Position numbers and translations under genes: made by a program | Assembly (NCBI GenBank): GCA_032718475.1 | Contig: JAUCBJ010006805.1 | Span: 1-64,000, forward strand | DNA length: 64,000 nucleotides | Direction of reading: 5' to 3' | Origin: Nemertoderma westbladi | Taxonomy: Eukaryota; Animalia; Xenacoelomorpha | Shown: positions 882-36,589 of the stretch, in pieces | How positions within the stretch are numbered: position 1 is the stretch's first letter | How the letters are laid out: each line of letters begins with the position of its first letter | The notes under the pieces: generated by a model | Databases searched by the model: none | Told to the model about the DNA's origin: nothing | What the model saw: the letters and a program-made list of their open reading frames with translations, nothing else

Positions 882-3143
882 GTTTGTTTACAGTTGAATG
901 CCTACGGCTATAAATACAGCTAAAGTAAGTCTAGTAATTCAGTATCACTGTTAGCCTAATAATTAATTACCGATACTGCTACCCAGTGTAGCGTGATATA
1001 TATAATATTAGAATACCGGTATGCTTATGGTATATATAAGTATTATTACAGACTAGGTTTTTCACAGAAACCGGTATATAAGTTTAGCACAAATATATAT
1101 AAATATATAATAGGCCTATCGAGGATACCGGTATGCAGTTTACACTTATAGTGTATATATATAAGTATAATTACAGACTAAAATTAATTACAGAATACCG
1201 GTATGATTTCAGCTTAAGTTTATGAAAATAAAGCTAATAAGCCTATTGTAAATACCGGTATATCAATTATTTTAAATAATTGAATTTCTGAATTTTAAGG
1301 GTTACTTGGTTACTTTAACTTACTGTATTACCGTTATTTAAGCAGTAGTCCAACTGATATTGAGACCTAATTGTTGTATGGCAGGCCTAGTATTTATAAA
1401 TCGTTTGAGTTGATTTATAATATATATATACCCGTTTTAATGGGTTTTGTCAATGTTTGAAATAAATGTTATTATTTCTGGGGAGTAATCACTACACAAA
1501 GCGGTGCGCTTTCAGTGAAGTGTTACTTATAGGACACTAAAACAAATAATTCTAATTTACCTAAGTTACTTAATACTACAAATTACGTACAATTTGGGTG
1601 AGATTACAATCTCTAAATAAACACAAAAATTTACAAAAACACAAAATACGAATTTTCAGGGTAATTTTACAAGAAGTCTACAAACCAGCCTAACAAAGGG
1701 TTAGAAAACTGGTTATTACAACGGACAGGGTACTGCGGTATTTGAAATAATAAGTAGTAGTAAATACACTGCATTGTCCAGATAGGAAAATACCACCGCC
1801 TGACGACCTATAGCCGTATCGCTATAGGTTCTACGTTATGTATCACGGAGTGTTCCTACCTAGAAGTTAATAGAGCTAATCGAACGTGCCTATCAACCAC
1901 TTTACAACACAAATATAATGCCTACTAATTACTTTCGGAAAGCACTGTACACTAAACCCTAAATTAGGTACGAGTACTTGTATAACAGATAATCAGTAGT
2001 TAAATATACTTGAACAGCTAAAAGAACCACGGCATCTGCTGGAGTGACCGATGCACAAAATCACCAGTCTTTACCTACGCCAAGCAGCCCGTGTAGTACC
2101 GGGGTTAATTTAACTATAGCGGTATGTATAACAAACACAATTACTGTAGGAACAAACTTGGGGAATGAATGTTGCGGATAATCGCATAAACTCTGAATAA
2201 TAAATATTACGCTACGCGTACAAACTACTCAAACAAAATGCAGACCGAACACTGACAGACTACTATCAAGCCTAAACAAACTACGGTATATGCAGACTCC
2301 GAAATAATTAGGTAGTATGTGTTCTAACCCAGTAGTACGACTTATTCTTTAATTGGGGGTTTACCTTACAGCATTCGCTGCCCCTACTTCCTAACCGTAC
2401 TTAATCGGACAAGTGATCTACACACGCTGCAATCCGCTCAGGCCCAACAACAGCCAGACAACTATCCAGCCTACAAATTATCTAAATAAATATTATACGC
2501 TACCCGTACAGACTTACACAAACAAAGTACAGACTAAACGATGGCAGACTACTCTCAAGCCTAAATAAACTACAGGACATGCAGACTCCGAAATGATTAG
2601 GGAGTATGCGTTCTAACCCTGTAGTACGACTTATTCTTTAGTTGGGGGTTTACCTTACAGCATTCGCTGCCCCTACTTCCTAACCGTACTTAATCGGACA
2701 GGTGATCTACACACACTGCAATTCGTTCGGACTTAACAGCAATCAGACAACAGCTCAGCCTACAAATCGTCTGTACAATCTGATCAGGTTTACACGCCTT
2801 CTGTTCAATACTGGCCTACAAACAAATAAAACTTGACAGAAATAAGTAAAATCTCAATAAAAAACCAGGGCGGGCCCTCCCTGATTAATTATTAAGGCCT
2901 ACCGGTATATAATTATCAAAATCGAATAATACTAATGTACTTATACGGGAAGTACCGGTTAGGACAGTTAGGCCTACGGACCTACAGAAGTACCGGTTCT
3001 GGCAGTTGGACCTACGGGCCTACAGCAGTACCGGTTCTGGCAGTTGGGCCTACTGACCTACAGATGTACTGTTCAGGTTTACCGGTTGACCGGTACTTTC
3101 AACTTTATTGCTTACTGCAATAAAGAAGACATATATCCGTTAT

Positions 3144-4395
3144 TGTTCGCGCTTTCAGACCTTTGGCAGTTTAACCCGCCAAATTAGGATGTCTTCTAGA
3201 TAATAAATCACCTTTAGTCTATGACAAGTATTTAATTCACTACACTAGTCGAAACCAATCTGTGCGCGATCATTCACCCGCTGGATATACCCGGGAGATT
3301 GGGTTCGACGGCTTAATTTTATTGCTATGTAAGCCTAATGTATTATTCGACTGACAGTATTATATAATCTCTGACAATATTATTCACCTTCGGGAAATAT
3401 TAACAGTTCCTTTAGGACGTGGCGCTCTATCTATATAAACAGAGTTATGACTTAAACTACTCACAACGATATGGCTTAGTTACAATTCACATATATGGCG
3501 CATTCTTTAGGAAATGCTTCGTTATCAGTCTCACTCATACACAATGCTGCACAATACTGCACACTGATCTGCCGATCTTCACTGATTTTAGTCACATATA
3601 AAAGGAACACGGACCGAATCAGGTAGGGTCTATCAAATAACATTAGATTCACTTCAAACCACTCAACATAGGTCGCAATCATTTATCTGTAACCCTTCTC
3701 TCTTACCTTCGGTATATCAAGAATATTGGGTTTTCGGGGTTATTTGTCGTTATTCCAAATATAATAATTCATCAACCATGTTATGAAGAACTGACAGTAA
3801 ATAGCAGTATAACAATATAAAAGTATGCACAGTGTTACACAGTATGCAGTGTATGCAGTACTGCAGTATGCAGTATGCAGATAACGGATATATGTCCTTA
3901 TAATTAAGCCTACTAGTGTAGGGCTAAAGCAGAAAAGCACAAAATACTCCAAAGCCGTTCTTCCTGGCTTAGAATCACCAACAACACTGATAAGAATAAC
4001 TATAAGAATACCAGCTACCCTTATTCCACGAAGCTCCCGTCCAACACAGAGAAAGAGCAGTGAGATAGGAAAATTCAGTTCAGTAGCTCTGTGATAGGTC
4101 AAAATCAAAGCCAACTCAAATCCTATTGGCAGATACAGAAAGCAGGGCTATGGGGCAACGTGGCAATATCAGCCGTTAGCCGTCGTCATGGTAGCGACAC
4201 TGTTTTCAAGAGTATCGAGCTTTTTACGTCACGAAATTACAGATTATGTCCTCTAAAGTACAAATACAGAAGAAATGGCTTTTATGTCCTCCAAAACACC
4301 AGTACAGCAAGGACACGGCCTTTTTATGCCTGGTAAACCAACCACAGAGTACTTTACGGGGATAATAACCAGCTAATTACGCAAAAGCTTTTACA
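3144..4395 (-). repeat. 5' LTR of A1 (~1.25 kb)
   Basis: Ends TGTTCGCGC...GCTTTTACA (TG..CA). Homologous to 22417-25228, 34469-35672 and 61252-62484. Confidence 0.92.
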
Positions 4396-6470: not shown

Positions 6471-6549
6471 TGGTGAGGTCAATATTGGATTTCGAACCCG
6501 CGAACTTAGGTTTCATTAACGTGATTGATAACCACTAGACTATGTGACC
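6471..6549 (-). other. Degenerate tRNA-like sequence (pseudo-tRNA or SINE head)
   Basis: Minus strand reads GGTCACATAGTCTAGTGGTTA...GGGTTCGAAATCC...TTGACCTCACCA, with A-box and B-box motifs. The anticodon arm is poor. Confidence 0.5.
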
Positions 6550-7130: not shown

Positions 7131-7671
7131 TGTTAGCTTATTCAATCCCGCCAACACCCCATAAAGTTATAAGCCGATAAGCAATATTGGGAGCCACGAG
7201 ATTGGGCAATTAACCAACTCGTGCCATCCCAATAAGAGTGGGAAGGAAGCACACAATAGAGGGTCAGGGGCCAAACCCCTAACCCAGAGAGAACAGGTGG
7301 AGTGAACGGGAATACTCCACGGGGCGCCAACAAGGGTATTAACCAATCAGAGGGGGGAATGGCATCGATTGAGTAGCAGTAAGGCCACCGTGCAATATAA
7401 CCAATAACCTATTAATCAGTGATTCAGTTATCTCAGTGCAGCAGTGCTAGCGTAGGGTACAGTCAATTAGTTTAGTTAGGGGATCACGGGACTTTAGTTA
7501 CCGTATCCCGCCTTGTACACATTATACCTATATCTATATCCTATGTCCTATTATTATTATACACCGAACTTCAGAACTCAGTTACCTTTATTTCACCCTT
7601 ATACACGGCGGGGATGCGTGGACTAAATTACCACATCGGATAAATCGGGATCCCTCCTGGATCCCGTCACA
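7131..7671 (+). repeat. 5' LTR of element B
   Basis: Direct repeat of 18840-19380. CCAAT at 7343, TATAA at 7396, initiator-like TTCAGTT at 7423. Confidence 0.95.
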
Positions 7672-7751
7672 GTAACTAAATCCGAGCTGCCGCCCCAGTT
7701 AAACTCTGAGAACTACACTGCTTGCTAGTCGAACTCCACCGAGCAGACGAG

Positions 7752-10056
7752 ATGAGTGAATCGGGCGAGACACCGACGCGGACCCCGGACGAAGATCAAA
7801 CGATCTGCGAGGCCGCGACCAAGCGATACAGGCCCACGACGCCGGAGCCATCGATAACGGGCGAACCGGAAGTCCAGGACGAGGAGGGCCTGGAACCCGA
7901 AGTCGAGCCAAGAGAGAAAGAGAGCGAGATGGAGGGAGATGGAGACGAGTCGACACGAGAGGGAGAACGGCGCGCCGATGTCGCCGGCCAGCTACCGGCC
8001 GAGGGTGACGAGCGGCCCACCGAAACGGCGACGGTGGGGCCGACGGTGCGACGCCGGACGCGAAGAGACGGAGGAGAGATCGGTACCGATGTCGCCGGCC
8101 AGCTACAGGCCGAGGGCGACGGACGGCCCACCGGTACGACGTCGAACCCGGAGGGACGGAGGAGAGGTCGGCGACGAGGACGTCGGGGTTTCTGAGCGAC
8201 TTCGACGGGCCTACAACGCGACCCGGAAGCTGATAAACGACGCCAAGAAGGAAGGGGCGAAGGTAGACGAGGTGAGACTGAGAAAGCGACTAGGTGAGTC
8301 GGATAGACACTTAAATTACCTAATACGTTTTGGGCAGAGAGAACTGGCCGGGGAGAGAGCAGAAAGGATAGCCGGCGAATTGTTTGAACTATGGAAGTGT
8401 GGGAGTATGGAACCTAGTGTAGCGCCAGTGTACATAGGGCCATACTTGGTCGATGCCCGGGGAGTAAAACCAGTGGGTTGGAGGGGACTCGAAGGGGGCG
8501 AATCCGAGGTTAACCCCGAGGATTCGGCCTCGTCGGTCGGAGAAAGCTCCGGGAGGCCGGGGAAAGTTGGTAGGTCGGGAAGGCGGGGGAAGTCCGTCGT
8601 AACCGATAAGTCTGTTACATCCTCCGCGAAAGAAAGAGTGGTGAGAGAGATAGGTGCCGCATACCGCCTCGACGTGGCAGAGCAAGGTCAGAAGGAAATG
8701 GAGGAACGGCTAGAGGAGGGGAGAGCGCGGTTAGCGAGGGAAGCGGCATTGATTAAAGAGAACGGTGAGAGGGTAGAAAGGGCTTTGAGGAGCCTTAGGG
8801 AGAGTGACGAAATAGAGGAAAAGGAGTGTAGAGAGCGTGAGGCTAGGGAGGAAAGGGAACGCAGAGAGCGTGAGGCAAGGGAGGACGAGGAACGCGAGGA
8901 ACGTGAGACAAAAAGGGACGAGGAACGCGAGGAACGTGAGGCAAGAAGGGAAAAGGAACGCAAGGAATATGAGGCAAGAAGGGAAAAGGAACGCAAAGAA
9001 CGTGAGGCGAGATGAAGGGAGAGCGCTAGGAGTGTAGTAGAGTCGGCCAGACGGGACAGCCAGGAAAGTGAGGAGAGAGGGGCAAAGGCTGAGCGAGAGT
9101 TAAGGGAATTAGAGAAACGCCAAGGTGTATCGGCAAAAAATAAGATTAGACGGGCGCACGAGCTGGAATTGGTCCGAGTGTTGCCGTCTGAAAGCGGGGC
9201 CGGCTCGAGTATTTTTGAGGAGCCAGGAGCCGTAGACACGTTCATTAACACCCCACTGACAGGGACCGCACGACAGACCCAAAACTGGTGTAACCGTACG
9301 GGCGAGGGGGGTAATAATAATAATGGTACAGTAGACGTTGTTGATATTAATAGTACCGTATGGGATAACACTAATCAAACCTTTATTGCAGGAAATACTT
9401 TGCCTAGTGGTAGTAATTTAAATTTAAATCAGAACAATCCCAATACTAATGTAGAAAATAATCCTAATGTTGATGTAGTTACGCAAAATAATTCAAATAA
9501 TCAAAATAATAATCCGAATTCGGACCTACAAAATAACTTAAATAACGCAATTACACAGAATAATTCGAATAATTTAAATAATGATCTCAGCCCGAATTTA
9601 CAAAATAATTCAGATAACGTAGTCGCGCAGAATAATGCAAATGGTTTTGTTTCAAACGAGCAAATTGATTCCGTTTCTAATATGGGTGCTATTAATGTAA
9701 ACACGTCGGGCCTACATAACCAGGCGGAAGAGAGCCTGGTAGGCCACGTAGTTAGTAGACAGGGAGCAGAGGGCCTGGTAGGCCACGTAGTTAGTAGACA
9801 GGGAGCAGAGGGCCTGGTAGGCCACGTAGTTAGTAGACAGGGAGCAGAGGGCCTGGCAGGCCACGTAGTTGGTAGGCAGGGAGTAGAGGGTCTGGTAGGC
9901 CATGCAATAACAGAGGGAGAGGCGAGGGTGAACAGACCCGACTGTGATAGGGTTGATGTGTCGACTAGAGAGGTATATAATAGCGGGGAAAGAGGTAGCG
10001 AAGTTAGATGTAGCGAGTGGGGGGGGGGCTACGAGGGCCCCATAACAGAGAGTTAG
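7752..10056 (+). pseudogene. gag: N-terminal low-complexity/coiled-coil part of B gag (disrupted)
   Basis: ATG at 7752, apparent frameshift at ~8130, single in-frame TGA at 9013-9015. Contains an E/R-rich coiled coil, an Asn-rich tract and 39-bp repeats (GLVGHVVSRQGAE, ~9730-9903). Confidence 0.65.
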
Positions 10057-13000
10057 CGGCGAGAAGGGGGGGGCAGAGAGTGTCCCACAGCCGTCAGCAG
10101 ATAATGCGAGGGCCGAAATAGGTAAACCGCAACAACCAGCGACGGAAAGTAATAGGGGGATTACGAGTATCCCCAGCGACGTGCGACCGGGCAAGGAAAG
10201 ACAGGTTGACGTTGCGGGAGGGCGGACGAAGCGTCGAGCCCAATCAGAGGAGGAAAGAAGAACAGTGGGGTTTAACCGGGAGGTCGACGAGAGATCTCGC
10301 GAGCGGGAATATTCCACTGATACGAGAAGAAAGGAAGACAGTAGTAGAAGTATCGCCGCAAACGATAGAAGAGCGAGGACGGACAGCGAGCCGTCGGTAG
10401 TCGAGATGAGAACGGAGAGTCAGTGGGGTCGGACTCCGGGAGATTGCCGTCGCCCCGGAGAGATGCGACCCGGCGAGGCGCATTGCACGCCGAGAGAGGG
10501 GTACGCGATGTACCAGAACGAGGATGAGAACAGTAGAGAGGGGGGTCGGAGAGAAACTTTCCGACGGAATGTACCTACCGGACGAGATTACGGTAGCCGC
10601 AGGGAGGATTATTCGAGAAGAATAAACTTCGATCCCGAACAACACATGCAGACTGTAGGACATACTAGAGGCCTTACTGCACATACCGTAGGCCATACTG
10701 AGAGAGGCAATGTAGGCGATAGGATAGCGTGGACAACGGGATTAAACCCGGAAGTCGCGGAATACATACCGGCGGGTAGGCCAGAAGCTGATAGGCCTAT
10801 ACCGGTACCAGCACTGCAGTATGACTACAGCATGCAGGGACATAACATATACCCAGGGGAGGGGGGAATTATTGCGGATAGGTGCATGGGCCCCAACATA
10901 TTAACATCAACCCCAGTACCAGACATACCGGTGGGGGGGGGACAGGGTGACATTCCCCCATCACAATATCAACAATATACCCCGATGGTAGCAAGAACAA
11001 CGAGACCCTTGGACGAAAACAGATCGTGTGACACAGATATATGGAGGGGGCCGCTACCCCCAATGACATACCCAAGCCAGAGAAAGTCAAGAAATAGGAC
11101 AGACGGAACGCACCAGACAGGGGAAACTATACAGCACCCGTCGAATCCATTGGAAGCGCAGGCGATAGGGATGGCCACGTTGATCGATGCTTTGAAAACG
11201 AGGATCGAGTTACCACCCGTGGAACCATTCAAGTTCGACGGGAGTAGGCCGGAAGAATATTTACAATTTCGGCGAATGTATAGTAACGAAATACTAACAA
11301 AAAACTTGACGCAGGCGGAGTGCCTAAAGTATCTACAAGTGTACACGGGAGGCCCAGCATACGATATCGTGAGGCAATACCAAGGAATAGAGGGCGGCTT
11401 CACGACAGCATGGCGGGCACTGGATAGGGAATACGGGCACCCGGCCAAGATCATCAGGCAGACGCTGAGAGGCATAACATCGGGTGGCCTACAGGATAAC
11501 CCCGTTAGCATTAAGACGTTTGCTAACAAAGTCGAGAAGGCGCTGATCGTGCTGAAGACGCTAGACGCGCCATACGAGCTCAACGCATCCAATAACATCA
11601 CCACGATAGCGCAGGCACTACCGAGCTGGCTGCGCAACAAATGGAGGAAGATCGCTTTCTCCACTCGAGACAAGAAGGGTGCGGAACCGGGTTTAGAAGA
11701 AATGTCAAACTTCTTAAATTACGAGGCCGAACTAATAACGGACCCAGTCTATAGTGAAGACAGCCTGGGAAAGGGACCAAAGACAGACTACCATAGACCA
11801 AAACCAGAGCACAACACATCGAACGCGTTACCGAGACTCAGGCAATCATTGCCATATGCAGCGACGCAGGGGACTGCAAGTCCACAGACAAACGAAGATA
11901 AGACAACATCAAGGGACGGACAGGGGAACAATAACAACATGAATAAACATAACCCCAGTACGTCCAGTAGGCCAAACCCAGTCAATAAGAATAGTAGGGA
12001 CTTTGGTACGAATATAACTGCGATACGCAATGCATTGTATAAAGAGGGCTACGACCCAAAGAGCAAATGCCAGTTACACGCAAATGCGCTTCATAAAACC
12101 ATGAATTGCAGGTACTGGCAGGCGCTACCGAGGCAAGACCAGATAGATTACGCGTCGTGCAATAAAATCTGCTCGCGATGTGTGAAGAGTGGACACAAGG
12201 CCAGGGAATGCCAAGAGAAGCCGGTCAAGTTTGGCCAAAGGAGAGGCCAAACGATGGCAACGAGCACGGTAGGGGCGAAGAAAACAGGCACAGTGCTACT
12301 TGGAGTAGTACCAGTACGAGTGATCGGGGAAGGCAATCGATCAGTAACAACACTAATGCTGGTTGATAGTGGAGCTGCCTTCACATTAGTTGAGGAATGG
12401 GTAGCCGAAGAAATAGGGTTGAGAACGAGACCAAGCAGGATGGCGGTGACAACCATCTCTAGCAAAGACGAGATCCTAGAGATGAGGACAGGACGGTGCG
12501 CAATTGCAGCAGTGGCACCAGGATGCGATTATGGGGCAACCATCGACCCCATCCAAGTAATAGAGTCAATTAACATCAATGCCAGGCGGCCGACCAACAT
12601 CGAGGTCGAGCAATACAAATTCCTGGACAACATTGACTTCTCAATCCCAGACGTGGACGTTAGGAAGGTATCCATCATAGTAGGCATGGACTGCCCAACG
12701 GCCCACGAGAGAAAGCAAACGGTCTTCGGCGAAGACAAGCAGAGCGACCCGGTGGCCATATTAACACCATTCGGGTGGACACTGACAGGCCCAATTAAGA
12801 GTAATATACCATTCCATGTGTCCGAGAGTTCAGGATGCATGGTGCCAGGAACTGACGAGATAGAGGAGAGGCCAGAGATGGGCAATAGTGGTAGACAGCT
12901 AGAAGTAGAAGCAACACCAAGAGAGTGGGCGGAGGAGAATGGTATGGATGCAGAAGATCTAGAGACGATGGGTTGGAATAAGGGTCCCAGCAAGTATCGG

Positions 13001-13666
13001 TATGGAGATGGGGAGGAGCGGACGGTGGAGTGTCGGGAGGACAAACCGGAGAAGTGTCCGGTGGAGTGTCCAGAGGAGCGCCCGGAAGAGACGCCGGTCC
13101 GGTTGAGAGGCATACCGACAAGGGGGAAGCCGAGTAAGAATCCAAGATGGAAAGGGAGAAGATGTGAGACGATCAAACCAGGGGCAGAGAAGCCCATGAA
13201 TAAACATATGGTGGACAAAGGAGGCGGGAGAGTAGGAGGCGTGCTGCGTACGCACGCGGAACTGACAGAGTGCGAGGGGGCATTACATGGGCAGACATCG
13301 TGTATACCGAAGGACGAACGGGGGTCGTTGAAGCCTTTAATGCCAGCACACATATTAAGGGGGAGGCCAACAGAGGTGGCATCTAAGATTAAGGAGAAGA
13401 ACAGGGGCGGCATTATACCGCCGGGTGACACGTTGAAGGGTGGCACTTTGCCGCCAAGGGACGACCACGAGATCAGAAACATAAATAGAAGACAGCATTT
13501 CCAAAAACAGGAGAAAAGACCACCTATCGAATTGACAAGGAGAGCGGAGCGAAGAATTAGAGAACCTATAGGGGGGCAGTGGCAGAGTTGCCTGCTGGAG
13601 GAATCACCCCTTGGGTCGCTGAGTTGTCCAACAGGTTGGACTGGGATGGAAGAGTTAGATCCGTAA
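10046..13666 (+). CDS. BEL/Pao Gag core plus aspartic protease; RT, RNase H and integrase absent
   Basis: LPPVEPFKFDG..EEYLQF (DUF1759-type capsid region), CSRCVKSGHKAREC knuckle, LVDSGAAFTLV protease, AILTPFGWTLTGP. PLMPAHILRG resembles the end of BEL integrase. No YxDD motif. The frame is open from 10046. Confidence 0.88.
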   Translation, partial: QRVSGEKGGAESVPQPSADNARAEIGKPQQPATESNRGITSIPSDVRPGKERQVDVAGGRTKRRAQSEEERRTVGFNREVDERSREREYSTDTRRKEDSSRSIAANDRRARTDSEPSVVEMRTESQWGRTPGDCRRPGEMRPGEAHCTPREGYAMYQNEDENSREGGRRETFRRNVPTGRDYGSRREDYSRRINFDPEQHMQTVGHTRGLTAHTVGHTERGNVGDRIAWTTGLNPEVAEYIPAGRPEADRPIPVPALQYDYSMQGHNIYPGEGGIIADRCMGPNILTSTPVPDIPVGGGQGDIPPSQYQQYTPMVARTTRPLDENRSCDTDIWRGPLPPMTYPSQRKSRNRTDGTHQTGETIQHPSNPLEAQAIGMATLIDALKTRIELPPVEPFKFDGSRPEEYLQFRRMYSNEILTKNLTQAECLKYLQVYTGGPAYDIVRQYQGIEGGFTTAWRALDREYGHPAKIIRQTLRGITSGGLQDNPVSIKTFANKVEKALIVLKTLDAPYELNASNNITTIAQALPSWLRNKWRKIAFSTRDKKGAEPGLEEMSNFLNYEAELITDPVYSEDSLGKGPKTDYHRPKPEHNTSNALPRLRQSLPYAATQGTASPQTNEDKTTSRDGQGNNNNMNKHNPSTSSRPNPVNKNSRDFGTNITAIRNALYKEGYDPKSKCQLHANALHKTMNCRYWQALPRQDQIDYASCNKICSRCVKSGHKARECQEKPVKFGQRRGQTMATSTVGAKKTGTVLLGVVPVRVIGEGNRSVTTLMLVDSGAAFTLVEEWVAEEIGLRTRPSRMAVTTISSKDEILEMRTGRCAIAAVAPGCDYGATIDPIQVIESININARRPTNIEVEQYKFLDNIDFSIPDVDVRKVSIIVGMDCPTAHERKQTVFGEDKQSDPVAILTPFGWTLTGPIKSNIPFHVSESSGCMVPGTDEIEERPEMGNSGRQLEVEATPREWAEENGMDAEDLETMGWNKGPSKYRYGDGEERTVECREDKPEKCPVECPEERPEETPVRLRGIPTRGKPSKNPRWKGRRCETIKPGAEKPMNKHMVDKGGGRVGGVLRTHAELTECEGALHGQTSCIPKDERGSLKPLMPAHILRGRPTEVASKIKEKNRGGIIPPGDTLKGGTLPPRDDHEIRNINRRQHFQKQEKRPPIELTRRAERRIREPIGGQWQSCLLEESPLGSLSCPTGWTGMEELDP

Positions 13667-13821
13667 AAGGTGCGGGCAGAGGTGTTACCTGTCTTCTAGA
13701 AGGGGCACCTTAAATTGGAGTTAGAGTGGAGTTTAGTCGTCCAAGTTTTGGACTGAAGGGGGTGGGATTGAGGGCGAGACGCCCTTCCCACACAAATAAA
13801 ATAAAATAAAATAAAAATAAA

Positions 13822-15096
13822 AGTTAGTTAGTTAGTAGGTACGTAGTACCTAGAGTTAGTTAGTTAGTAGGTACATAGTACCTAGAGTTAGTTAGTTAGT
13901 AGGTACGTAGTACCTAGAGTTAGTTAGTTAGTAGGTACGTAGTACCTAGAGTTAGTTAGTTAGTAGGTACGTAGTACCTAGAGTTAGTTAGTTAGTAGGT
14001 ACGTAGTACCTAGAGTTAGTTAGTTAGTAGGTACGTAGTACCTAGAGTTAGTTAGTTAGTAGGTACGTAGTACCTAGAGTTAGTTAGTTAGTAGGTACGT
14101 AGTACCTAGAGTTAGTTAGTTAGTAGGTACGTAGTACCTAGAGTTAGTTAGTTAGTAGGTACGTAGTACCTAGAGTTAGTTAGTTAGTAGGTACGTAGTA
14201 CCTAGAGTTAGTTAGTTAGTAGGTACGTAGTACCTAGAGTTAGTTAGTTAGTTAGAGGGTACGTAGTACCGTTAGTTAGAGTTAGAGTTAGAGGGTACGT
14301 AGTACCGATAATTAGAGAGTTAGAGGGTACGTAGTACCAATAGTTAGTTAGAGTTAGAGGGTACGTAGTACCGATAGTTAGAGAGTTAGTAGGTACGTAG
14401 TACCTAGTTAGAGTTAGAGTTAGAGGGTACGTAGTACCGATAGTTAGAGAGTTAGAGGGTACGTAGTACCAATAGTTAGTTAGAGTTAGAGGGTACGTAG
14501 TACCGATAGTTAGAGAGTTAGTAGGTACGTAGTACCTAGTTAGAGTTAGAGGGTACGTAGTACCGATAGTTAGAGAGTTAGTAGGTACGTAGTACCTAGT
14601 TAGAGTTAGAGTTAGAGGGTACGTAGTACCAATAGTTAGTTAGAGTTAGAGGGTACGTAGTACCGATAGTTAGAGAGTTAGAGGGTACGTAGTACCAATA
14701 GTTAGTTAGAGTTAGAGGGTACGTAGTACCGATAGTTAGAGAGTTAGTAGGTACGTAGTACCTAGTTAGAGTTAGAGTTAGAGGGTACGTAGTACCGATA
14801 GTTAGAGAGTTAGAGGGTACGTAGTACCAATAGTTAGTTAGAGTTAGAGGGTACGTAGTACCGATAGTTAGAGAGTTAGTAGGTACGTAGTACCTAGTTA
14901 GAGTTAGAGGGTACGTAGTACCGATAGTTAGAGAGTTAGTAGGTACGTAGTACCTAGTTAGAGTTAGAGTTAGAGGGTACGTAGTACCAATAGTTAGTTA
15001 GAGTTAGTAGGTACGTAGTACCTAGTTAGAGTTAGAGTTAGTAGGTACGTGGTACCTAGTTAGAGTTAGAGTTAGGGGGTACGTAGTACCATTAGT
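13822..15096 (+). repeat. Tandem array of ~39 units (28-36 bp) with core GGTAC-GTA-GTACC and TTAG/TTAGAG linkers
   Basis: 13 near-identical 32-bp units followed by ~26 units in a higher-order pattern (hand count). Confidence 0.95.
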
Positions 15097-15594
15097 TAGA
15101 GAGAGAGAGTGAGAGATAAAAGGGGTAAATAGGATATAGATATTAGTTAGCAGTAAGTAGAGTTAGTAGCGAGAGGGGGGCATATGAGTACAGCTGGATA
15201 AATCGTGTGGCCACACGACGCATACTGCTGTACTGCATGGGCCCACAGAGTAGGCCAGAATATGGATCAGAGAATAGAATAAATCCATAGGCAGTAGTAG
15301 GTAGTAGGACAGTAGGATCAAAACAAACAAATAAATAGAATAGGGCTAAAAATCGAAAAATAGTGGCAACACAAGGAAAGTCGTTCTAGAACATAATAAA
15401 AGTAACGGACGGAAATTGTAAATTAGGCTGATTTACTAGCTCCGAAATTAATTAGGTTAAATTAAGCTTGAAAGGCGCAATTAAGTAGAAAGTAGGCCAT
15501 TATCGAACTGTACGAAACATCTTAAATACTTCACTCATCTGTATTGCGCCTTGGTAAGGCACCACCCTGCAGGTGAGCGAGTGTAGTGTTCGGA

Positions 15595-16998
15595 ATGGCG
15601 AGTAAGCTGATCAGGAAGAGAAAGGCGGAGTCAGGAGGAAAAGAAATATTGGTGGATTTCACCGAAAGACACCCGGAAGAGAAGACAAGAGGATACTACG
15701 AGCGGTTGGAAAGGGGTCACGCGGCACGAGCGCTGCAGGATCACTTCCGGGAGGCGCACGGACAGCGGTTGGTCGGGACCTACGGGACCCCGTCACTAGA
15801 CAACGCGATCTTCCAACACTTCCACTACGTGGTGAAAGGGGACGAAGCGAAGTTCGGGATTCCGAAATATCCGAGGGAATCACCGAGGAAGGACTGGAAA
15901 AGATTCATAGAGTCCGTCAACAGAGGAGGATATATGATCCTAGATGACGAGGGAACCGTGGAGGACGAAGCGGGTTCGAGACGAGGAACGGCAGGGTCGG
16001 CCAGGACCATACTCCTACATTTGGCCGCGCCGAATGGGGACATCTTCTTATTCGACCTAGGGACGTATAGGAAGAAGGACGGGCCGAAATTAGACCGGTT
16101 GCCGAAAGCGGTACAAGTCTTAGTAAGAGAGAAGTCGACGACGAAAGTGGGATCGGCGATTCGCGAGGACGCGGAGAGGATCATCGGTCCGGACGCCACC
16201 AACCTCCTGGATATGCAGAAAGTCTTTATGGCTATGACGGCACCGGATGGATTGGGGGTGGTCGAGAACTCAGGCCAATGCGGGGCGGTGGCGATGGGCC
16301 AATTATTGGGGCTCGTATGCCACAAACCAATGGATTGGGGGAAGTTTAGGGAAGAATACGGAGCAGAACTAGCGAACTCGCTGAAGTGGGGAGCGAGACC
16401 GGGAAAGCAGGAGGTATATCAGTTTCGCAGAGGAGCGATAAAGGTATATCAGAAGCGATATATCCTGCAGGAGGACTGGATGATGATAAGTTTGCTTAAC
16501 TTATTCATGACCGTAGTTATCGAAAGGGAACCAGGGGCATTTCTGTTATCGGGATCACCCCTAAGCTACAGGAGAGCCTTTAAAGTGGCCTTTGACGGTC
16601 TGGCAGACCACCCGGGGCTGAAGGGCGAGTCGGTGTACTACAACAGCCGACATCTGGTAGACGGGGAGACAGATACACCGTATCAGAGATGGGAGCAGCT
16701 AGAGGCGGACAGACGAGAAGCAAAGCGACTGGAAGAAGTCGCTAGACGGGAGAGGATAGAAGCAGAGGAGAGGGAAGAGGAGGCCAGGGCACAGAGTTAC
16801 GGCTTCGGGGAGCAGGCGGGCCTAGACGAACTTCATTGGACTTCGTCAGGGAGTTCGGGGGAGTCTCTAGGGCGAGAATTGGGATGGACGGTGGGATCGC
16901 CGAAACAGTCGACGTCGGGGTTGCAAACGATGCCCATACCAGCGGGCGCCGAGGGCGACCAACCGCCAAGGAAGTTAAGGGAGCTAGAGGGATGGTGA
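15595..16998 (+). CDS. DnaQ-like DEDDy 3'-5' exonuclease domain protein (WRN-exo/EXD/RNase D-like) carried by element B
   Basis: ExoI-like ILDDEG; LLHLAAPNGDIFLFDL; LPKAVQVLVREKSTTKVGSAIRED (ExoII-like); LLDMQ; QLLGLVCHKP; YQKRYILQED (ExoIII-like). Confidence 0.7.
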   Translation: MASKLIRKRKAESGGKEILVDFTERHPEEKTRGYYERLERGHAARALQDHFREAHGQRLVGTYGTPSLDNAIFQHFHYVVKGDEAKFGIPKYPRESPRKDWKRFIESVNRGGYMILDDEGTVEDEAGSRRGTAGSARTILLHLAAPNGDIFLFDLGTYRKKDGPKLDRLPKAVQVLVREKSTTKVGSAIREDAERIIGPDATNLLDMQKVFMAMTAPDGLGVVENSGQCGAVAMGQLLGLVCHKPMDWGKFREEYGAELANSLKWGARPGKQEVYQFRRGAIKVYQKRYILQEDWMMISLLNLFMTVVIEREPGAFLLSGSPLSYRRAFKVAFDGLADHPGLKGESVYYNSRHLVDGETDTPYQRWEQLEADRREAKRLEEVARRERIEAEEREEEARAQSYGFGEQAGLDELHWTSSGSSGESLGRELGWTVGSPKQSTSGLQTMPIPAGAEGDQPPRKLRELEGW

Positions 16999-18129
16999 GC
17001 TACGGGCGAGAGCCAAGGTGGGAAGGGACATAGTGGATCCATCGGGATACCGGGATTGGAGACACTACCGGAAGAGGAGGACGACGACGACGAATTCGGA
17101 GAGATGCCGCCCATCGAGAGGATAGGCCACTCGGACACGGACTGGGTTGGCGGAAGGGTGGTGACGGCCAGTGGGGCGAGGGCCTTCTGGAACAGATCCG
17201 GCAAGCGGACCTGGGTGCACGAGGAGCCGGTGATGGATTTCGCGGGGAGCACCATCAGGTTGGGCGAGCAACCGGGGACGGCACCACGGATAGTATTCGG
17301 GGAGACGATGCCCGAGAGGGGCGGAGAGATCGACGTAAACAGGGAGAGCAACGTAGAGAAGTTCGCCTACCAGCGACTCCATAGACCGCGGAGATCGCTT
17401 GGGACGAAGGACGAGGTGGGACGGGAGACATTGGTACTCGGCTGCGACTACTGTGGGAGACAGACCCATCGGGAAAGCAGCTGCCTGTACCGGTTCCAAC
17501 GGGGAACCTTTTGTCTCTACTGTAGAGAACCAAGTCACAGGATGGGGGCGTGTCCACGGTTGCATAACCGATGTCCAAAGTGCCACTTTCGGGGGCACTA
17601 CGGACGCGAGTGCGACTGGATGAGCGACGAGGAGAAGTTCACGAGGTTCGAGGAGTGGGCCGACGTCGGGGCCATGACGCGCCAGCGCATGAAGGCCCAA
17701 GAGTTCAAGTGGGGTTTCTTCCTTATAAACCAGGAGACCCACATGGAAATCATAAAGCGAAGGTTACCGTTTACCTATCAAGAGGTAGCTACGGCGGCAT
17801 CGTTCGCCGGAGTTATAAACACGCAACGGTACCTGGACAGGTGGACACCAGAGAACCTGAGGGAGTTTAGGGATTTCTTGGCGGAACACGTACCAAAGGC
17901 AATGAAAATGATCCTATGGGACGCCACACGAGGGAGACAACCAGGCCATTCTGAGGGGCCACCGGCGAAGCGGTATCGGGCTTTAATAACACCAGCGCCC
18001 AAGGAGCCGACAACCGGGATCAGCAAGGAAGTGGCAGCGAAGGTCCGGAAGCAGAAAGCGGATGATGCCAGAGGAGCGGTGATAACCAAGAAACGGGCCA
18101 GGGAAGAGGACGTGAGGAGGTACAGATGA
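16999..18129 (+). CDS. Triple CCHC zinc-knuckle protein; same frame as the exonuclease ORF, separated by one TGA
   Basis: CDYCGRQTHRESSC, CLYCREPSHRMGAC, CPKCHFRGHYGREC, followed by a basic NLS-like C-terminus (PPAKRYR, KKRAR). Confidence 0.8.
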   Translation, partial: ATGESQGGKGHSGSIGIPGLETLPEEEDDDDEFGEMPPIERIGHSDTDWVGGRVVTASGARAFWNRSGKRTWVHEEPVMDFAGSTIRLGEQPGTAPRIVFGETMPERGGEIDVNRESNVEKFAYQRLHRPRRSLGTKDEVGRETLVLGCDYCGRQTHRESSCLYRFQRGTFCLYCREPSHRMGACPRLHNRCPKCHFRGHYGRECDWMSDEEKFTRFEEWADVGAMTRQRMKAQEFKWGFFLINQETHMEIIKRRLPFTYQEVATAASFAGVINTQRYLDRWTPENLREFRDFLAEHVPKAMKMILWDATRGRQPGHSEGPPAKRYRALITPAPKEPTTGISKEVAAKVRKQKADDARGAVITKKRAREEDVRRYR

Positions 18130-18801
18130 GTTCCCGGAGACGAGGGAATGAGACTGAGACTGGGAAGTGGTGCGCCTGGAAGGCGCCGCATGTAACGCAC
18201 GAACTATTAAGTATAAATTTAATTAATGCAAATAATCATATAAGTGCAATTTGTATGTACGTACGTAGTGATTAGCAGTAAAATACATACGTTTGGAGTA
18301 AGTACTATAGTCATACAACCTTTCTCAACTAGCTAGTGGGACTGGGGGGAATAACTGACTATGGCACTATGGACGAGACAACTGACAATTTCACACTTCT
18401 CGAGTGCGACGGCACGAGAGGGGGGGAGGTTCGTCAGGAGAGATAAAACAGTCAAAGTGGAGTTGAGGATCGGAATAAGAGTGCGAAGTGCGGAGAGAGT
18501 GCGAACGCAATTCTAGTGTGGGGGGGGGGAGAATGAGAGGCTGAGTAAGGGACGAGGAGGTCCGGGGGTATGAGAAAGTTAGGGTGAGAGTGAAGGTGAG
18601 ATAGGGCGAAAATGTTGGGGAAACAAAGGTCGTGTGAAGAGGTGAGCGCGATCGGCCCGACATGAGACGCCAGGCACACAGGGTAGCGTTATCATACCCA
18701 TAGGGGGCGGCCTGGAAAGCCGGCTCCTAGAGAAAAGAATTCCACCCCACACCCGATATTAGATCGGGATCCAGCGGGATTGTAACGCACTTTTTTGGTT
18801 G

Positions 18802-18839
18802 ATGCTATCTTCTTACCGGGAAGATAGCATGGGGGGGAG
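18802..18839 (+). other. 11-bp hairpin followed by the polypurine tract of element B
   Basis: ATGCTATCTTC-N7-GAAGATAGCAT, then GGGGGGGAG abutting the 3' LTR. Confidence 0.85.
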
Positions 18840-19380
18840 TGTTAGCTTATTCAATCCCGCCAACACCCCATAAAGTTATAAGCCGATAAGCAATATTGGG
18901 AGCCACGAGATTGGGCAATTAACCAACTCGTGCCATCCCAATAAGAGTGGGAAGGAAGCACACAATAGAGGGTCAGGGGCCAAACCCCTAACCCAGAGAG
19001 AACAGGTGGAGTGAACGGGAATACTCCACGGGGCGCCAACAAGGGTATTAACCAATCAGAGGGGGGAATGGCATCGATTGAGTAGCAGTAAGGCCACCGT
19101 GCAATATAACCAATAACCTATTAATCAGTGATTCAGTTATCTCAGTGCAGCAGTGCTAGCGTAGGGTACAGTCAATTAGTTTAGTTAGGGGATCACGGGA
19201 CTTTAGTTACCGTATCCCGCCTTGTACACATTATACCTATATCTATATCCTATGTCCTATTATTATTATACACCGAACTTCAGAACTCAGTTACCTTTAT
19301 TTCACCCTTATACACGGCGGGGACGCGTGGACTAAATTACCACATCGGATAAATCGGGATCCCTCCTGGATCCCGTCACA
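18840..19380 (+). repeat. 3' LTR of element B
   Basis: Direct repeat of 7131-7671. Confidence 0.95.
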
Positions 19381-21934: not shown

Positions 21935-22947
21935 AGTAGTAGAGGAAGAGGGTCCCCCCACCCACTCCTCCCTAGCTTGGGCTTTGGGCGATATCTCGGA
22001 GGACTATTAAAAATGCCAAATTCCGGTGCTAAATTGCGGTGTTTAATTGGCCAGTTGCCACCATCAGTATTGATTCGCGTCGTTGCCATCAACCAATCAT
22101 CGATATTCACCTACGCGTAGCCTAACCTCGCGATGCCCGCCTTACTCGACAGCTGTTACCACCCATCAGTATTGATTCGCGTCGTTGCATCAACCAATCG
22201 TTGCATATTCATCTTCGCGTAACCTAATTTCACGATGCATGGCTAGCCCCCACATACCCAACCCATCGCTACTCGACTGCTGTTACCAACCAACTAACCA
22301 ACCAAACAACCAACCAACTGCCATGCTTGCCTAGCCCTCCGGTTACTCCCCTTTTCCCCACGCTACCGCATACTGTATACGATGACAACGATAGAGTCAG
22401 TCACGGAGGACGTGGCTGTTCGCGCTTTCAGACCTTTGGCAGTTTAACCCACCAAATTAAGATGTCTTCTAGATATTAAATCAGTTTTTAGTCTATGACA
22501 AGTATTAGATTCACTACACTAGTCGAAACCAATCCGTGCGCGACCATTCACCCGCTGGATATTCCCGGGAGATTGGGTTCGACGGTTTAATTTTATTGCT
22601 ATGTAAGCCTAATGTATTATTCGACTGACAGTATTATATAATCTCTGACAATATTATTTACCTTCGGGAATATTAACAGTTCCTTTAGGACGTGGCACTT
22701 TATCTACATAAACAGAGTTATGACTTAAACTACTCACAACGATATGGCTTAATTATAATTCACATATATGGCGCATTCTTTAGGAATGCTTCTTTAACAG
22801 ACTCACTCATACACAATGCTGCACAATACTGCACACTAATCTACCGATCTTCACTGATTTTAGTCACATATAAAAGGAACACAGACTGACTCATGTAGGG
22901 TCTATCAAATAACATTAGATTCACTTCAAACCACTTTAACATAAGTC

Positions 22948-24544
22948 TACTACTACTACTACTAGGATCGGCATGCTGCATTGCAGCTGCATTTTTAAGA
23001 ATGCTGTGCCGGCTTGTCAACAAAATTGCACCGCCACAACTCCCTATCACCCATGACATTTGCTAGATCATCCGCATCTTTAAGGCCAGTGTCCATTAAT
23101 ATGCGTCTCAAGAAAGTCATGGGCTGTCCACTATGCTTATTCACTCCATGAGGCTGCCAAAGTACAAGATTATGCACTGGCTGGTCCTCACGGCGAAAGC
23201 AATGTCCTGCAAAGCGGAGGCGATTTTGTTCTAGTGTCAAGCTTGGGGAAACCAATGAGACACCTCCAATGTTATATAGTGTCTGGTTGGAGATGTGTGC
23301 ATTGTACTTGACACAATGAACCCGGCGTAGCATTCTTGTGAATGTGCCATCCAGAGATTTGGTGTCCTCAGCAGTTAGAGCCCAGCATGGACTCCCGTAG
23401 AGGAGTACTGGAACTACTGCTGCTCTAAATAATCGGACCTTAAGTTTCCGATTAATTCTCGGTGACTTCCAAATCCTGGAAAGCCTATTCAAGGCTGCCC
23501 ATGCCTTTCCCTTACGTATTCGAAGGTCCTCACCTGACTTCCGGATCCATGATCCCAGGTAACAGAAGTCGTCGACATGCTCAAGCATACCATCCTTTGA
23601 GCTTATGCTCATCCGATCAGAGACTTGCTGAGGACTTTCAAAGTTAACTGTCAGAATTTTGGTCTTTCTGGAGTTAATAAAAAGACCAACACTAGAAGCA
23701 GCATGTTCTAATGAGCTGAGGAGCCGTTGGGCTCCCTCTAATGATTCTGAGAGTACTCCTAAGTCATCAGCAAAGTCTAGATCAGTTAGGTACTTGGCAG
23801 GATTTCCTCGACTTCTGGAGCCAGTAGGTGGAGTTATCATCACCCCATCATCATTATGATGATCTAAGGACATGCGTAGAACATAGTCAACCACAATAAT
23901 GAATAAGAATGGTGCAAGTGTGTCTCCTTGGAGGACGCCCCATAACACTTCGAATGGTTCTGTGTCACCGTCAACAGTAGACACAAATGTTGTCGAACCA
24001 TCGTATACTGATCTGATTGCTGCAATAATTTCATCAGGAATCCCATATAATGAAAGTATGCTGAACATACGTGAGCGAGAGACTGAATCAAAGGCCTTGA
24101 AGAAGTCAACAAAGATAACAGCCAGATGCCTGTCTTTCTTTTTTGATAATTCTTCAATTATCCTTCTAAGTGCCAAAATGGGCTCCATGGTCCCACGACC
24201 TTTACGGAACCCATTCTGATTTCCACGGAGCAGTCTCTCAATGGGATCCCTGATGCGATTTAATAGAATCCTATTGTATAGCTTTGCAGCAATTGAGATC
24301 AATGAGATTCCCCGAAAAGAACCATAGAGTGTTAGGTTGCCCTTCTTGGGAACTGGCACCAACTTATTTGTTTTCATTTCTTGTGGGACTCTTGTTGTAC
24401 GGTACATGTCTACTATGATGGGATAGATAAGCTTTAAACACTCAGGTATTTTAAAGACCTCAGGGGGAACACCATCTACTCCACTGGCACGATTGGTCTT
24501 AATGCTCTTTGCAGCAGCCTTCACTTCTGCAAAGGAGATATAAG
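22948..24544 (-). mobile_element. 5'-truncated RTE-clade non-LTR retrotransposon (family 1)
   Basis: 11-bp TSD TAACATAAGTC at 22937-22947 and 24545-24555. (TAG)n 3' tail. RT ORF present. Confidence 0.93.
22995..24539 (-). CDS. RTE reverse transcriptase (partial, open frame)
   Basis: KASGVDG-like motif, QNGFRKGRGT, FVDFFKAFDSV, GVLQGDTLAPFLF, LDFADD, FCYLGS, RLRFAGHCFR. Confidence 0.92.
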   Translation of the reverse strand: MSFAEVKAAAKSIKTNRASGVDGVPPEVFKIPECLKLIYPIIVDMYRTTRVPQEMKTNKLVPVPKKGNLTLYGSFRGISLISIAAKLYNRILLNRIRDPIERLLRGNQNGFRKGRGTMEPILALRRIIEELSKKKDRHLAVIFVDFFKAFDSVSRSRMFSILSLYGIPDEIIAAIRSVYDGSTTFVSTVDGDTEPFEVLWGVLQGDTLAPFLFIIVVDYVLRMSLDHHNDDGVMITPPTGSRSRGNPAKYLTDLDFADDLGVLSESLEGAQRLLSSLEHAASSVGLFINSRKTKILTVNFESPQQVSDRMSISSKDGMLEHVDDFCYLGSWIRKSGEDLRIRKGKAWAALNRLSRIWKSPRINRKLKVRLFRAAVVPVLLYGSPCWALTAEDTKSLDGTFTRMLRRVHCVKYNAHISNQTLYNIGGVSLVSPSLTLEQNRLRFAGHCFRREDQPVHNLVLWQPHGVNKHSGQPMTFLRRILMDTGLKDADDLANVMGDRELWRCNFVDKPAQHS

Positions 24545-25239
24545 TAACATAAGTCACAATCGTTTATCTTTAACCTTTCTCTCTTACCTTCGGTATATCA
24601 AGAATATTGGGTGTCGGGGTTATTTCTCGTTATTCCAATATAATAATTCATCAACAAATATAATGAATAACCGACAACAAATAGCAGTATAAAACAACAA
24701 CTGAACACTGATTGTTATGAGTTTGCAATGTTTCAGCAGTCAGTATGTATGATTAGTTAGCAGTGATTCCATGAGTTAAAGGATATATGCCCTTTATAAT
24801 TAAACCTACTAGTGTAAGACTAAAAACTAAAACACGGAGGTGCCAAAGCCGGTTCTTAGGCTCTGGGCAAAAACATAACACTGAACTACTGAGTTTCTGT
24901 ATATACCTCCAACACAAAGACAACAAACGCTCTGATTGGTCAACCTGAACAACGAGAGAACAGAGAAACAAAGAAACGTCGACGTGGCAATATCAGCTGC
25001 TAGCTGTCGTCATGGTAGCGACACTGTTTTCAAGAGTATCGAGCTTTTACGTCACGGAATTACGGATTATGTCCTCTAAAGTACAAATACAGAAGAAATA
25101 GCTCTTATGTCCGCTAAAACACCAGTACAGCAAGGACACGGCCTTTTTATGCCTGGTAAACCAACTACAGAGTACTTTACGGGAAAAATAAGGAAAAATA
25201 ACCGGACAATTCAGTAAAAGCTTTTACACCGCTCCCAGA

Positions 25240-26591
25240 AAATGGGATTTTCAGTCTATAAAATATAAAAATCACAGTTTCTAAAACATAAAGATACTCT
25301 AAACAGTTAGTCTTTCTTACGCAGACGGCGTTTACGCAGTTTTTTGAGGCTAGCAAGAGTCTTTTTCTCTTTGGGGGGAGCCACTTTACTAGGAGGGCCA
25401 TAACTCCTGGGTGAAGGGTGCAATATGATTGCATCAGAAGGTGTAGGTTTATGGTCGAGGTATCTGCTGTTTCGATATGCTTCTCCTCGAGCTGATTTTC
25501 CTCCGCTCGTAGCTGGATACGTTCATCCAAAACTCTCGCAGAGAATAGGATCGTCCAAGTTCGATAACTTCTTAGAGATTCTGGATTTCCCAATCGAATT
25601 GAGATAAGGCCAATTCGTTTATCGATAGGACTTACTGTTATAACTTACGTTTATCTGAACAAACGCAGGTTTCTTTTTTGATCTTTATAGAATAGCGTTT
25701 AACTCGTTTCGTACAACGCTCTCCTTTACCTTGATGAGGGGTTGTATCGCGTTAAACGGGGACGACCATACGGTTGGATAGTGATATTAGGTGTCCGCGT
25801 CACAATCCGGCTAGGTAAGATGGGCGGCTAGCTAGAAATCACTGGCGGAGTGTTACCGATTAATTGTTAGGGTAGCACTAGATCTTTGAACAGTGAATAC
25901 AGTCCGCGAGGATCCGCGACACCACCAGGATCGCAGGTCTGAGGTCCAACTAAGGAATGAGGAGGTTTGACCGAGTATTCCGGGACTCTGATCGTAGGTT
26001 TACTCCAGGATCGTTCGAGCCGAGTGAGCATAGGTGATACGTCAACAAGTTTCGGTTTACGTGGATGTTTATGTCTTTCCGTTTATTAGTTGGGTCTAGG
26101 GCATTTATCGTAATAATACCAAAGACGCACGTCTGGTAGGGTAAACGCGGGCGACATCCACCTGTTGTTACAATGCTTCTATCAAGAATTCCAAATATAC
26201 GTTGGAGTTACCGCGTTTATTTGTTTCTTTAGTGTCTTTTCTTTCGAGTCGATTTCGAATAGAATTTTCGCATTCGAATTTCAGTTTATGGTTCCGACTC
26301 CGCTGGGCAGGATATATAGTCGACATAGTCCGTATTGTGTAAATTGATAGAATGACCAGTAGTTAAGAAGCCCATATACGTACCATTACGCTGCGTATAT
26401 CGAGCAGCGAATTTTCTATAGTCCAACTCTCGCGAGAGCTGCACTTGGGACATTGTCGGTTCGATATAACGACCATCGTCCTCCGCAGCAGTTGGACTAA
26501 CGTCGCCGCGTATTAAGCTATCAACAAACGCTTGTAAAAGTAGAGTATATCGCTCCCCGATACCAAGACCATCTTCTATCAACTCCGTCAT
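25240..26591 (-). pseudogene. Cluster of short accessory ORFs or exons of unknown function in the 3' region of A2 (degenerate)
   Basis: Homologous to 62511-64000 (RELDYRKF.ARYT.RNGTYM.FLTTGH; RLWYY...CPRP; RVPEYSV.PPHSLV). Stop codons fall at equivalent positions in both copies. Confidence 0.6.
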
Positions 26592-36409: not shown

Positions 36410-36589
36410 CTTTTCCCCCTATATTATAAATATTTTATGATTATTTTTAAAATTTTGATCTTTTTAATTATGAAAAAAAATCAAATTTTAAATAATCGAA
36501 AATTGTAGTAGTATTTGTATATACAGTATATCAGATTTGTTTGTTGTGTATTGAGGTAATTATTTTCAATTTACTTTAAAATTTGGAAA

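Follow-up and report, generated by a model that had tools for sequence, protein, structure and literature searches.

Primer-binding sites complementary to the elements' own LTRs in BEL/Pao-type retrotransposons: candidate self-priming with a predicted helical scaffold

Which RNA primes minus-strand DNA synthesis when the primer-binding site (PBS) of an LTR element does not resemble a tRNA site and instead matches a piece of the element's own LTR? The question is raised by a stretch of 64,000 nucleotides of Nemertoderma westbladi DNA, termed the window in the following. The LTR elements in the window are nested. For Belpaoviridae, priming by a host tRNA is described, with an 18-nt PBS for tRNA-Arg or tRNA-Gly, and BEL/Pao replication is termed poorly understood (PMC8742986). 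The original prediction for this locus was that two insertions, A1 and A2, are BEL/Pao retrotransposons which prime with their own RNA. Self-priming is the best reading of the family-A signature and, judged from the sequences, self-priming in some form is probable. The family-A insertions, with the PBS and the complementary LTR segment (P), are:

3144..4395, minus strand: 5' LTR of A1, 1252 bp, TG...CA; the element is read on the minus strand
3128..3143, minus strand: PBS of A1, flush with the LTR, no TGG
3881..3896, minus strand: segment P of A1, the candidate self-primer, 16/16 complementary to the PBS
22417..35672, minus strand: A2, a non-autonomous element present in full, flanked by a 5-bp target-site duplication and carrying a polypurine tract
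34469..35672, minus strand: 5' LTR of A2, 1204 bp
34457..34468, minus strand: PBS of A2, 12/12 complementary to P
35220..35235, minus strand: segment P of A2; the PBS match spans 35220-35231
22417..25228, minus strand: 3' LTR of A2 with an inserted LINE fragment (about 22948-24544)
61252..62484, minus strand: A3, a diverged family-A 3' LTR with 72-79% identity to A1/A2; helices H1-H3 (see below) kept with changed letters, PBS outside the window

The pairing was recovered as predicted. Positions 3128-3143 of A1 are the exact reverse complement of the LTR-internal segment 3881-3896, and the same is true in A2 for 34457-34468 and 35220-35231. Both sites are flush with the CA which ends the 5' LTR (minus strand), neither has the initial TGG of a tRNA site, and P occupies the same aligned place in the two LTRs. 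The compensatory substitutions were also found: PBS positions 1 and 5 differ between A1 and A2, and the complementary change is present in P, giving two matched transversions. This covariation is based on two copies and two positions; given two changes per side, the chance of the same 2 of 12 positions changing with complementary letters is 0.0017. Compared with 2/12 differing positions in the PBS, the following leader up to position 60 differs by 2 substitutions and a 2-nt gap. The P:PBS duplex reaches 18 bp with one G.U pair in A1, where it extends 2 bp beyond the 5' end of P, and continues past a bulge in A2. Under an order-1 model of the LTR, the expected chance counts are 6e-7 (A1), 3e-4 (A2) and 4e-3 for a further element, B, described below. 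In a sliding null over the window, 12 or more complementary bases were reached at 4 of 3000 random sites. Complementarity, flush position and matched changes are a real feature of these elements.

Searching the A2 LTR plus leader against the contigs of four runs returned 10,751 contigs from one run, and the family is very abundant. Among the 40 variants listed of 110 obtained by comparing these contigs with A2, none lies inside the PBS or P.

Control loci were taken from 26 loci of prokaryote genome bins, found with a BEL/Pao alignment, plus 17 stretches from three of those genomes. Of these 43 loci, 28 were excluded (27 without a readable LTR pair and one duplicate), and the LTR ends of the others were set by hand. 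All 15 loci with readable LTR pairs carry TGG 0-7 nt from the LTR, and in all 15 the site has at most 6 self-complementary bases; with 5 sources behind them and 5 near-copies of a single family among them, they amount to fewer than 15 independent cases. The signature is thus not general to BEL/Pao LTRs, and the premise that BEL/Pao elements are generally tRNA-primed agrees both with these controls and with PMC8742986. No tRNA genes were found in the window. No paper on self-priming in BEL/Pao elements was found in a search outside subscription journals, Repbase entries and GyDB pages, so that an earlier remark is possible. Sources marked 'in part' here and below are cited from partial texts. 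PBS, primer, tRNA or self are not mentioned in the available part of PMC3118150, the only primers in that of PMC554778 are PCR primers, and the supplements of PMC6317226 (in part) give PBS types for plant elements only.

A second family in the window has a similar site:

7131..19380, plus strand: element B, a second non-autonomous BEL/Pao-type family, with 541-bp LTRs differing by 1 base and a 5-bp target-site duplication
7672..7680, plus strand: PBS of B, flush, no TGG, 9/9 complementary to its own LTR
7493..7501, plus strand: segment P of B, LTR positions 363-371

The BEL/Pao-type gag of B is only about 25% identical to that of family A. The complementarity of its flush site comes to about 12 bp past a bulge, and 9 complementary bases were reached at 17 of 3000 random sites in the sliding null over the window. 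The signature of B is weaker evidence than that of family A, being read from the sequence of one insertion. Duplexes of the pretzel type discussed below are weak and competing when B is folded. An extra ORF of B gave no PDB sequence match, and its single-sequence fold, with a mean pLDDT of 32.7, carries no information.

The coding capacity of the elements was considered next to their priming sites, and the ORFs of A2 are as follows:

30410..32320, minus strand: gag ORF of A2, BEL/Pao-type DUF1759 (PF03564), E 1.7e-12
28249..30453, minus strand: second ORF of A2, with zinc knuckles, a protease-like region and then a post-RNase H remnant

The DUF1759 gag domain is present in A2 and also in B (E 8.1e-11). 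The second ORF of A2 can be aligned with full-length BEL/Pao polyproteins over their zinc knuckles and protease, then skips about 560 residues of the full-length relative and resumes briefly after RNase H. By this alignment, the ORF lacks reverse transcriptase (RT), integrase and the greater part of RNase H; RT, RNase H and integrase are also missing in B, and the pol region of A1 lies outside the window. The Pao peptidase domain PF05380 was found in 9 of the 10 long top matches of the second ORF that were scanned. The assignment to BEL/Pao retrotransposons made in the original prediction therefore stands for the gag and protease type, and it had overlooked that A2 is missing RT, RNase H and integrase. 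Like Belpaoviridae, the elements have a DUF1759 gag, zinc knuckles, a protease region, TG...CA LTRs, a short target-site duplication of 5 bp and a polypurine tract. Unlike Belpaoviridae (PMC8742986), they have no 18-nt tRNA PBS, and A2 and B have no RT, RNase H or integrase. Because pol and the tRNA PBS, two Belpaoviridae features, are not present, A2 and B are filed as non-autonomous BEL/Pao derivatives, and by its sequence A2 is such a derivative.

The LTR pair of A2 differs at 3 positions when the LINE insertion in the 3' LTR is set aside. The LTR pairs of A2 and B are almost identical although neither element has RT, RNase H or integrase, so that a helper presumably must copy them, and A2 was probably copied recently by a helper's RT. 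A homologue search with the gag region of A2 gave no match among long proteins. Scanning metagenome contigs with the 16-letter pattern returned 119 stretches, none of them a relative, and viral contigs scanned with a BEL RT piece and the BEL alignment contained no relative either.

What lies on the 5' side of P bears on the kind of primer that P could be. In the 40 nt directly 5' of P, three nested helices (H1-H3) are possible with R/U5, and a fourth (H4) would connect the leader with the arm that holds the poly(A) signal. The arms are:

3902..3929, minus strand: A1 arms 5' of P; H1 core 3924-3929, H2 3912-3920, H3 3902-3910
3212..3318, minus strand: A1 partner arms in R/U5; H1' core 3212-3217, H2' 3241-3249, H3' 3310-3318
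3318..3334, minus strand: A1 poly(A)-signal arm with AATAAA, predicted to pair with the leader (H4)
3110..3124, minus strand: A1 leader arm just 3' of the PBS, partner in H4; a local hairpin is also possible
3147..3183, minus strand: U5 end of A1; hairpin 3162-3183, and an end arm 3147-3161 which can pair with 3257-3269
35242..35272, minus strand: A2 arms of H1-H3, 5' of P; partners 34535-34546, 34567-34575 and 34636-34644
34644..34660, minus strand: A2 poly(A)-signal arm (H4); partner 34437-34451

The helix arms were selected after inspection, and H1-H3, H4 and the junction described below are all predictions. The pairs of H1 are kept at 7/11 positions in A1, 11/11 in A2 and 10/11 in A3, those of H2 at 9/9, 9/9 and 7/9, with a C-G pair replaced by U-A in A3. 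H3 is kept at 9/9 in all three LTRs; a C-G pair is replaced by U-A in A2, and A3 has several changes, two G.U pairs among them. Going by these alignments, H1-H3 appear to covary across the three LTRs, with double changes in H2 and H3. Among 200 dinucleotide shuffles, the nested H1-H3 chain was matched once for A1 and never for A2 or A3, and none of the other LTR windows matched it (0/92, 0/87 and 0/90, in the same order). In a cofold test, windows equalling H1-H3 numbered 22/175 in A1, 0/165 in A2 and 0/170 in A3. In constrained folds A1 formed none of the three helices, A2 formed just H1, and A3 was the one LTR with all of them. Several other covarying helices occur in the LTR-leader region, so that covariation alone is no proof of priming.

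H4 would consist of 14 bp between the AATAAA arm and the leader immediately 3' of the PBS. Its energy is about -16 kcal/mol in both A1 and A2, and a local leader hairpin competes with it; the two G.U pairs of H4 in A2 are due to minority letters among the contigs compared (34440, 34448). The H4 arm runs directly into the H3 arm. When primer strand, leader and arm were folded as three strands, P:PBS, H4 and H3 met in a three-way junction, which was the minimum-energy structure for A1 as well as for A2, with a linker of 3-5 nt between H3 and P. The third strand was equalled by 0/366 (A1) and 0/349 (A2) other LTR windows.

The P:PBS pairing is a pseudoknot relative to H1-H3. Whole-leader folding with a model which cannot hold pseudoknots gave P:PBS probabilities of 0.81-1.0 in A1, 0.0 in A2 and 0.16-0.18 in B.

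In the Tf1 'pretzel', three duplexes are formed, two of which join PBS-adjacent sequence to the LTR downstream of the primer, in addition to the primer duplex (PMC10085805, in part). The corresponding PBS-flanking duplexes here are H4 and that of the U5 end. Both appear in the constrained fold of A1 (p 0.68-0.94); in A2 the arms are present, and neither duplex is part of the constrained minimum-energy fold. The U5 hairpin is kept in 3/3 family-A LTRs. On these predictions, P:PBS would lie within a three-way junction similar to the Tf1 pretzel; as modelled features, H1-H3, H4 and the junction are new here.

Where transcription starts decides in which part of the LTR P lies, and two candidate sites were located in A1:

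3983..3993, minus strand: upstream candidate start (TCAGT), the promoter proposed in the earlier work; weakly conserved
3359..3369, minus strand: downstream candidate TATA box, conserved in 3/3 family-A LTRs

A motif scan gave these two candidate promoters, neither of them at P, and according to PMC3601003 (in part) the borders of U3, R and U5 need RNA data. A start about 95 nt upstream of P had been proposed. In its favour, TCAGT is located at P-94 in A1 and P-93 in A2; against it, A2 alone has a clear TATA box further upstream (P-114), and TCAGT is missing from this place in A3. No part of the LTR is less conserved than this upstream candidate promoter region. The upstream start is nevertheless favoured, because a cut after P would be harmless in the 5' R copy and template-breaking in the 3' U3. 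No conserved cleavage signal was found 3' of P.

Self-priming as originally inferred keeps its support in the flush non-tRNA site, the matched changes, the second family, the 15 tRNA-type controls and the predicted Tf1-like structure; the upstream start is the part that is not established. The further proposal that P is internal to its RNA, unlike the primer of Tf1, gains support from the covarying H1-H3, which continue off the 5' side of P: if P is continuous with its 5' arms, it should not be the 5' end of the RNA.

From the sequences and the modelled structures, we give a probability of roughly 0.5 to the reading that RT-less BEL/Pao-type elements prime minus-strand DNA with P, an internal piece of the LTR transcript which is cut by a helper and held by a scaffold. 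Transcription would start upstream of the H1-H3 arms, with the candidate about 94 nt before P. P:PBS, H3 and H4 would meet in the three-way junction, while H2 and H1 would extend the grip, and the primer would keep a 5' extension of at least 36 nt. By analogy with Tf1, the RNase H of the helper element's RT may cut just 3' of P, and RT would then extend the primer from the LTR edge. Plus-strand synthesis would copy the primer into the PBS; how it halts at 12-16 nt despite the 5' extension lies outside the model. Since the primer would be copied into the PBS, PBS and P should change letter for letter, with no second mutation awaited. H4 may also mask the poly(A) signal, and would do so solely in the 5' LTR.

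A more far-reaching form of this proposal is put forward tentatively. The primer would be an LTR-encoded RNA of about 110 nt which evolved as a substitute for tRNA, being cut internally, with its 3' end on the PBS in the three-way junction and its 5' part gripping U5 via three covarying helices. The PBS would be rewritten in each cycle and drift with the primer, free of host tRNA, and the RT-less families would borrow the enzymes of helpers.

The same pairing could be used with P in U3, which is rather unlikely in our estimate. Transcription starting at the downstream TATA box, about 195 nt before the LTR end, would produce a short R; P and H1-H3 would then be contributed by the 3' LTR copy, in the same RNA or in a second one that is packaged, or by a short LTR transcript produced separately, and the cut RNA would be sacrificed as primer. 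The TATA-like box is indeed found at P+530 in 3/3 family-A LTRs and is followed by AATAAA after 43 nt in 2/3, the partner arms H4, H3', H2' and H1' and the PBS all lie within the last 191 nt plus the leader, which is the span of such a 5' end, and short R regions are common (PMC3601003, in part). A cut in the 3' U3 would, however, break the template after the first strand transfer, so that a second intact RNA would be needed. A splice-donor-like motif at P+188, recognised by motif alone, suggests transcription from upstream of the downstream TATA box, and in B the stretch 69-150 nt ahead of its own P contains CCAAT, a TATA-like box and TCAGTT at canonical distances; both speak against this version.

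It is improbable that the pairing is structural or regulatory, covering the PBS as a packaging, translation or poly(A) switch, and that the primer is a different RNA, for instance a small RNA or a fragment of a host tRNA. The other covarying helices of the LTR-leader region would fit such a role, and internal tRNA fragments prime other elements (PMC6317226, in part). With a host primer, however, the PBS would return to the primer's sequence in every cycle, yet two of the first five PBS positions distinguish A1 from A2, both changed in step with P. In both families, which are unrelated, the match stops precisely at the LTR edge, and its core is free of G.U pairs.

A plain Tf1 mechanism was likewise judged improbable. 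In this case the transcript would begin at the first base of P, the primer would consist of the first 12-16 nt, and H1-H3 would be 5'-3' circularising helices between the end of the 3' U3 and U5. The perfect match of A1 ends at exactly 16 nt, as it would if a short primer had been copied to its end, folding of A1 predicts duplexes of the pretzel type, and the first five PBS letters of A1 are those of Tf1 (PMC11042837, in part). On the other hand, none of the three family-A LTRs has a TATA box at -25 to -30 of P, the linker of 3-5 nt from H3 to P in the junction is simplest with both on one strand, and the A1 duplex can run 2 bp past the 5' end of P.

Chance, or a functionless inversion or conversion at DNA level, is very improbable despite only three insertions with a PBS having been examined in A+T-rich sequence, given the expected counts and sliding-null results above, the flush position common to two families and the matched changes.

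Other candidates for the primer and its origin were rejected. For a splice-built primer, no intron junction lengthens the match in A2 or B, and A1 gains 2 bases with non-conserved donors. A primer at the poly(A) site is not compatible with the nearest AATAAA being 573-586 nt downstream of P. No primer copy was found next to the 3' LTR, the 3' flank of A2 being a plain target-site duplication. Nor did Rfam point to a ribozyme or to a tRNA-like element within the LTRs: no hit in the window reached the gathering score, and A1 and B have one sub-threshold hit each.

The reading preferred here, priming by an internal piece of the LTR transcript, was compared with known systems. The primer of Tf1 is the first 11 nt of the mRNA, released by RNase H between bases 11 and 12 (PMC7175516, in part), and the Tf1 PBS is copied into the cDNA's 3' end (PMC11042837, in part). 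Like Tf1, Tf2, Tj1 and the Tf1/sushi group, the elements have no tRNA site and a PBS complementary to their own LTR; further duplexes flank the PBS in Tf1 (PMC10085805, in part) and are predicted to do so in A1, and the PBS of A1 begins with the same five letters. By analogy, the family-A system would work like Tf1/sushi self-priming, yet it is outside that group: Tf1/sushi elements are Ty3/gypsy chromoviruses, whereas gag and protease are of BEL/Pao type here. In contrast to Tf1, the match is 12-16 nt long and located about 740 nt before the LTR end, three predicted covarying helices lie 5' of P, which is impossible for the primer of Tf1, and A2 and B encode no RT or RNase H.

In HIV-1 (PAS/anti-PAS) and in Ty1 (extended primer and CYC pairings), a part of the primer 5' of the priming end pairs with U5 upstream of the PBS. 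The primers of both are host tRNAs. This topology is that of H1-H3, with the arms here encoded by the LTR and covarying with U5. In the TAR lineage of plant Ty1/copia elements (Houba, Osr-1) and in Tcn1, a self-complementary PBS was likewise predicted from sequence; these belong to other superfamilies and hosts, and no 5' scaffold is described for them in the available part of PMC6317226.

If this is true, reverse transcription without a tRNA would have arisen independently in these elements, in a third LTR superfamily, and internal priming with a structured 5' extension would be without counterpart in Tf1. The finding bears on whether hairpin or self-priming is ancestral or re-evolves, a question raised in PMC3601003 (in part), on annotation pipelines which require a tRNA PBS and, possibly, on the escape of elements from control via tRNA supply. 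The mapped arms give exact predictions for RNA ends and structure.

The dinucleotide AG adjoins the candidate self-primer segment within the LTR (P) on its 5' side in all three family-A LTRs, where it is preceded by T-rich sequence and also lengthens the duplex with the primer-binding site (PBS). As judged from sequence, this AG could act as a splice acceptor; a conserved splice donor for it was not found. Donor-like and acceptor-like motifs, spaced by about 125 nt, were located downstream of P within the LTR of family A.

3897-3898 (A1), 35236-35237 (A2) and the same place in A3, minus strand: AG directly 5' of P
3700-3712, minus strand: splice-donor-like sequence in the A1 LTR, motif only
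3577-3589, minus strand: splice-acceptor-like sequence in the A1 LTR, motif only

A1, A2 and the non-autonomous element B appear to have inserted into a third BEL/Pao element, which is represented in the window by fragments that include neither its 5' LTR nor its PBS. A tandem duplication of 6.8 kb begins within the A2 5' LTR, two bases from P. A short A+T microhomology and filler mark its joint, and fragments of RING-finger and P-loop type occur within it. The duplication may be genuine or an assembly artefact. One of two LINE reverse transcriptase (RT) copies sits in the A2 3' LTR and carries a short-repeat tail. Two inverted-repeat pairs are possibly miniature DNA transposons, and a protein kinase domain is probably a host-gene exon.

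4377-7130 and 19381-22416, plus strand: pieces of the third BEL/Pao element, carrying domains for RT and Pao peptidase
35237-42061 and 42095-48919: units of the tandem duplication, 99.9% identity
22948-24544 (in A2) and 55862-56895: LINE RT fragment, copies 98% identical
49202-49732 and 57955-58139: inverted-repeat pairs, arms of 65 nt and 71 nt, 97% complementary
53854-54522, minus strand: protein kinase domain

Outside the window, 26 BEL/Pao loci (L120-L145) were contained in prokaryote genome bins, mostly metagenome-assembled, and are likely animal host DNA that was binned in. For a BEL/Pao-related family in another genome (L154-L159, G003), the 11-15 kb examined revealed no direct repeat on the flanks. 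Since L154 and L155 share 97% identity across 11.5 kb, this family may have its LTRs at a greater distance or lack them.

Element B contains a repeat array, an extra ORF and a cysteine/histidine-rich ORF.

13726-15109: tandem repeat array, 1.4 kb
15577-16998, plus strand: extra ORF with 3'-5' exonuclease-like features
16999-18129, plus strand: cysteine/histidine-rich ORF, weak zinc-knuckle matches

The first ORF gave an atlas score of 0.94 to a cluster in which 34% of the members carry PF01612; it had no match in Pfam or PDB, and its predicted fold was uninformative. No similar ORF was found in family A. By its features the product resembles a 3'-5' exonuclease. LTR elements of rotifers are known to carry DEDDy ORFs (PMC5408684). 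In element B, such an exonuclease-like protein could trim a primer end.
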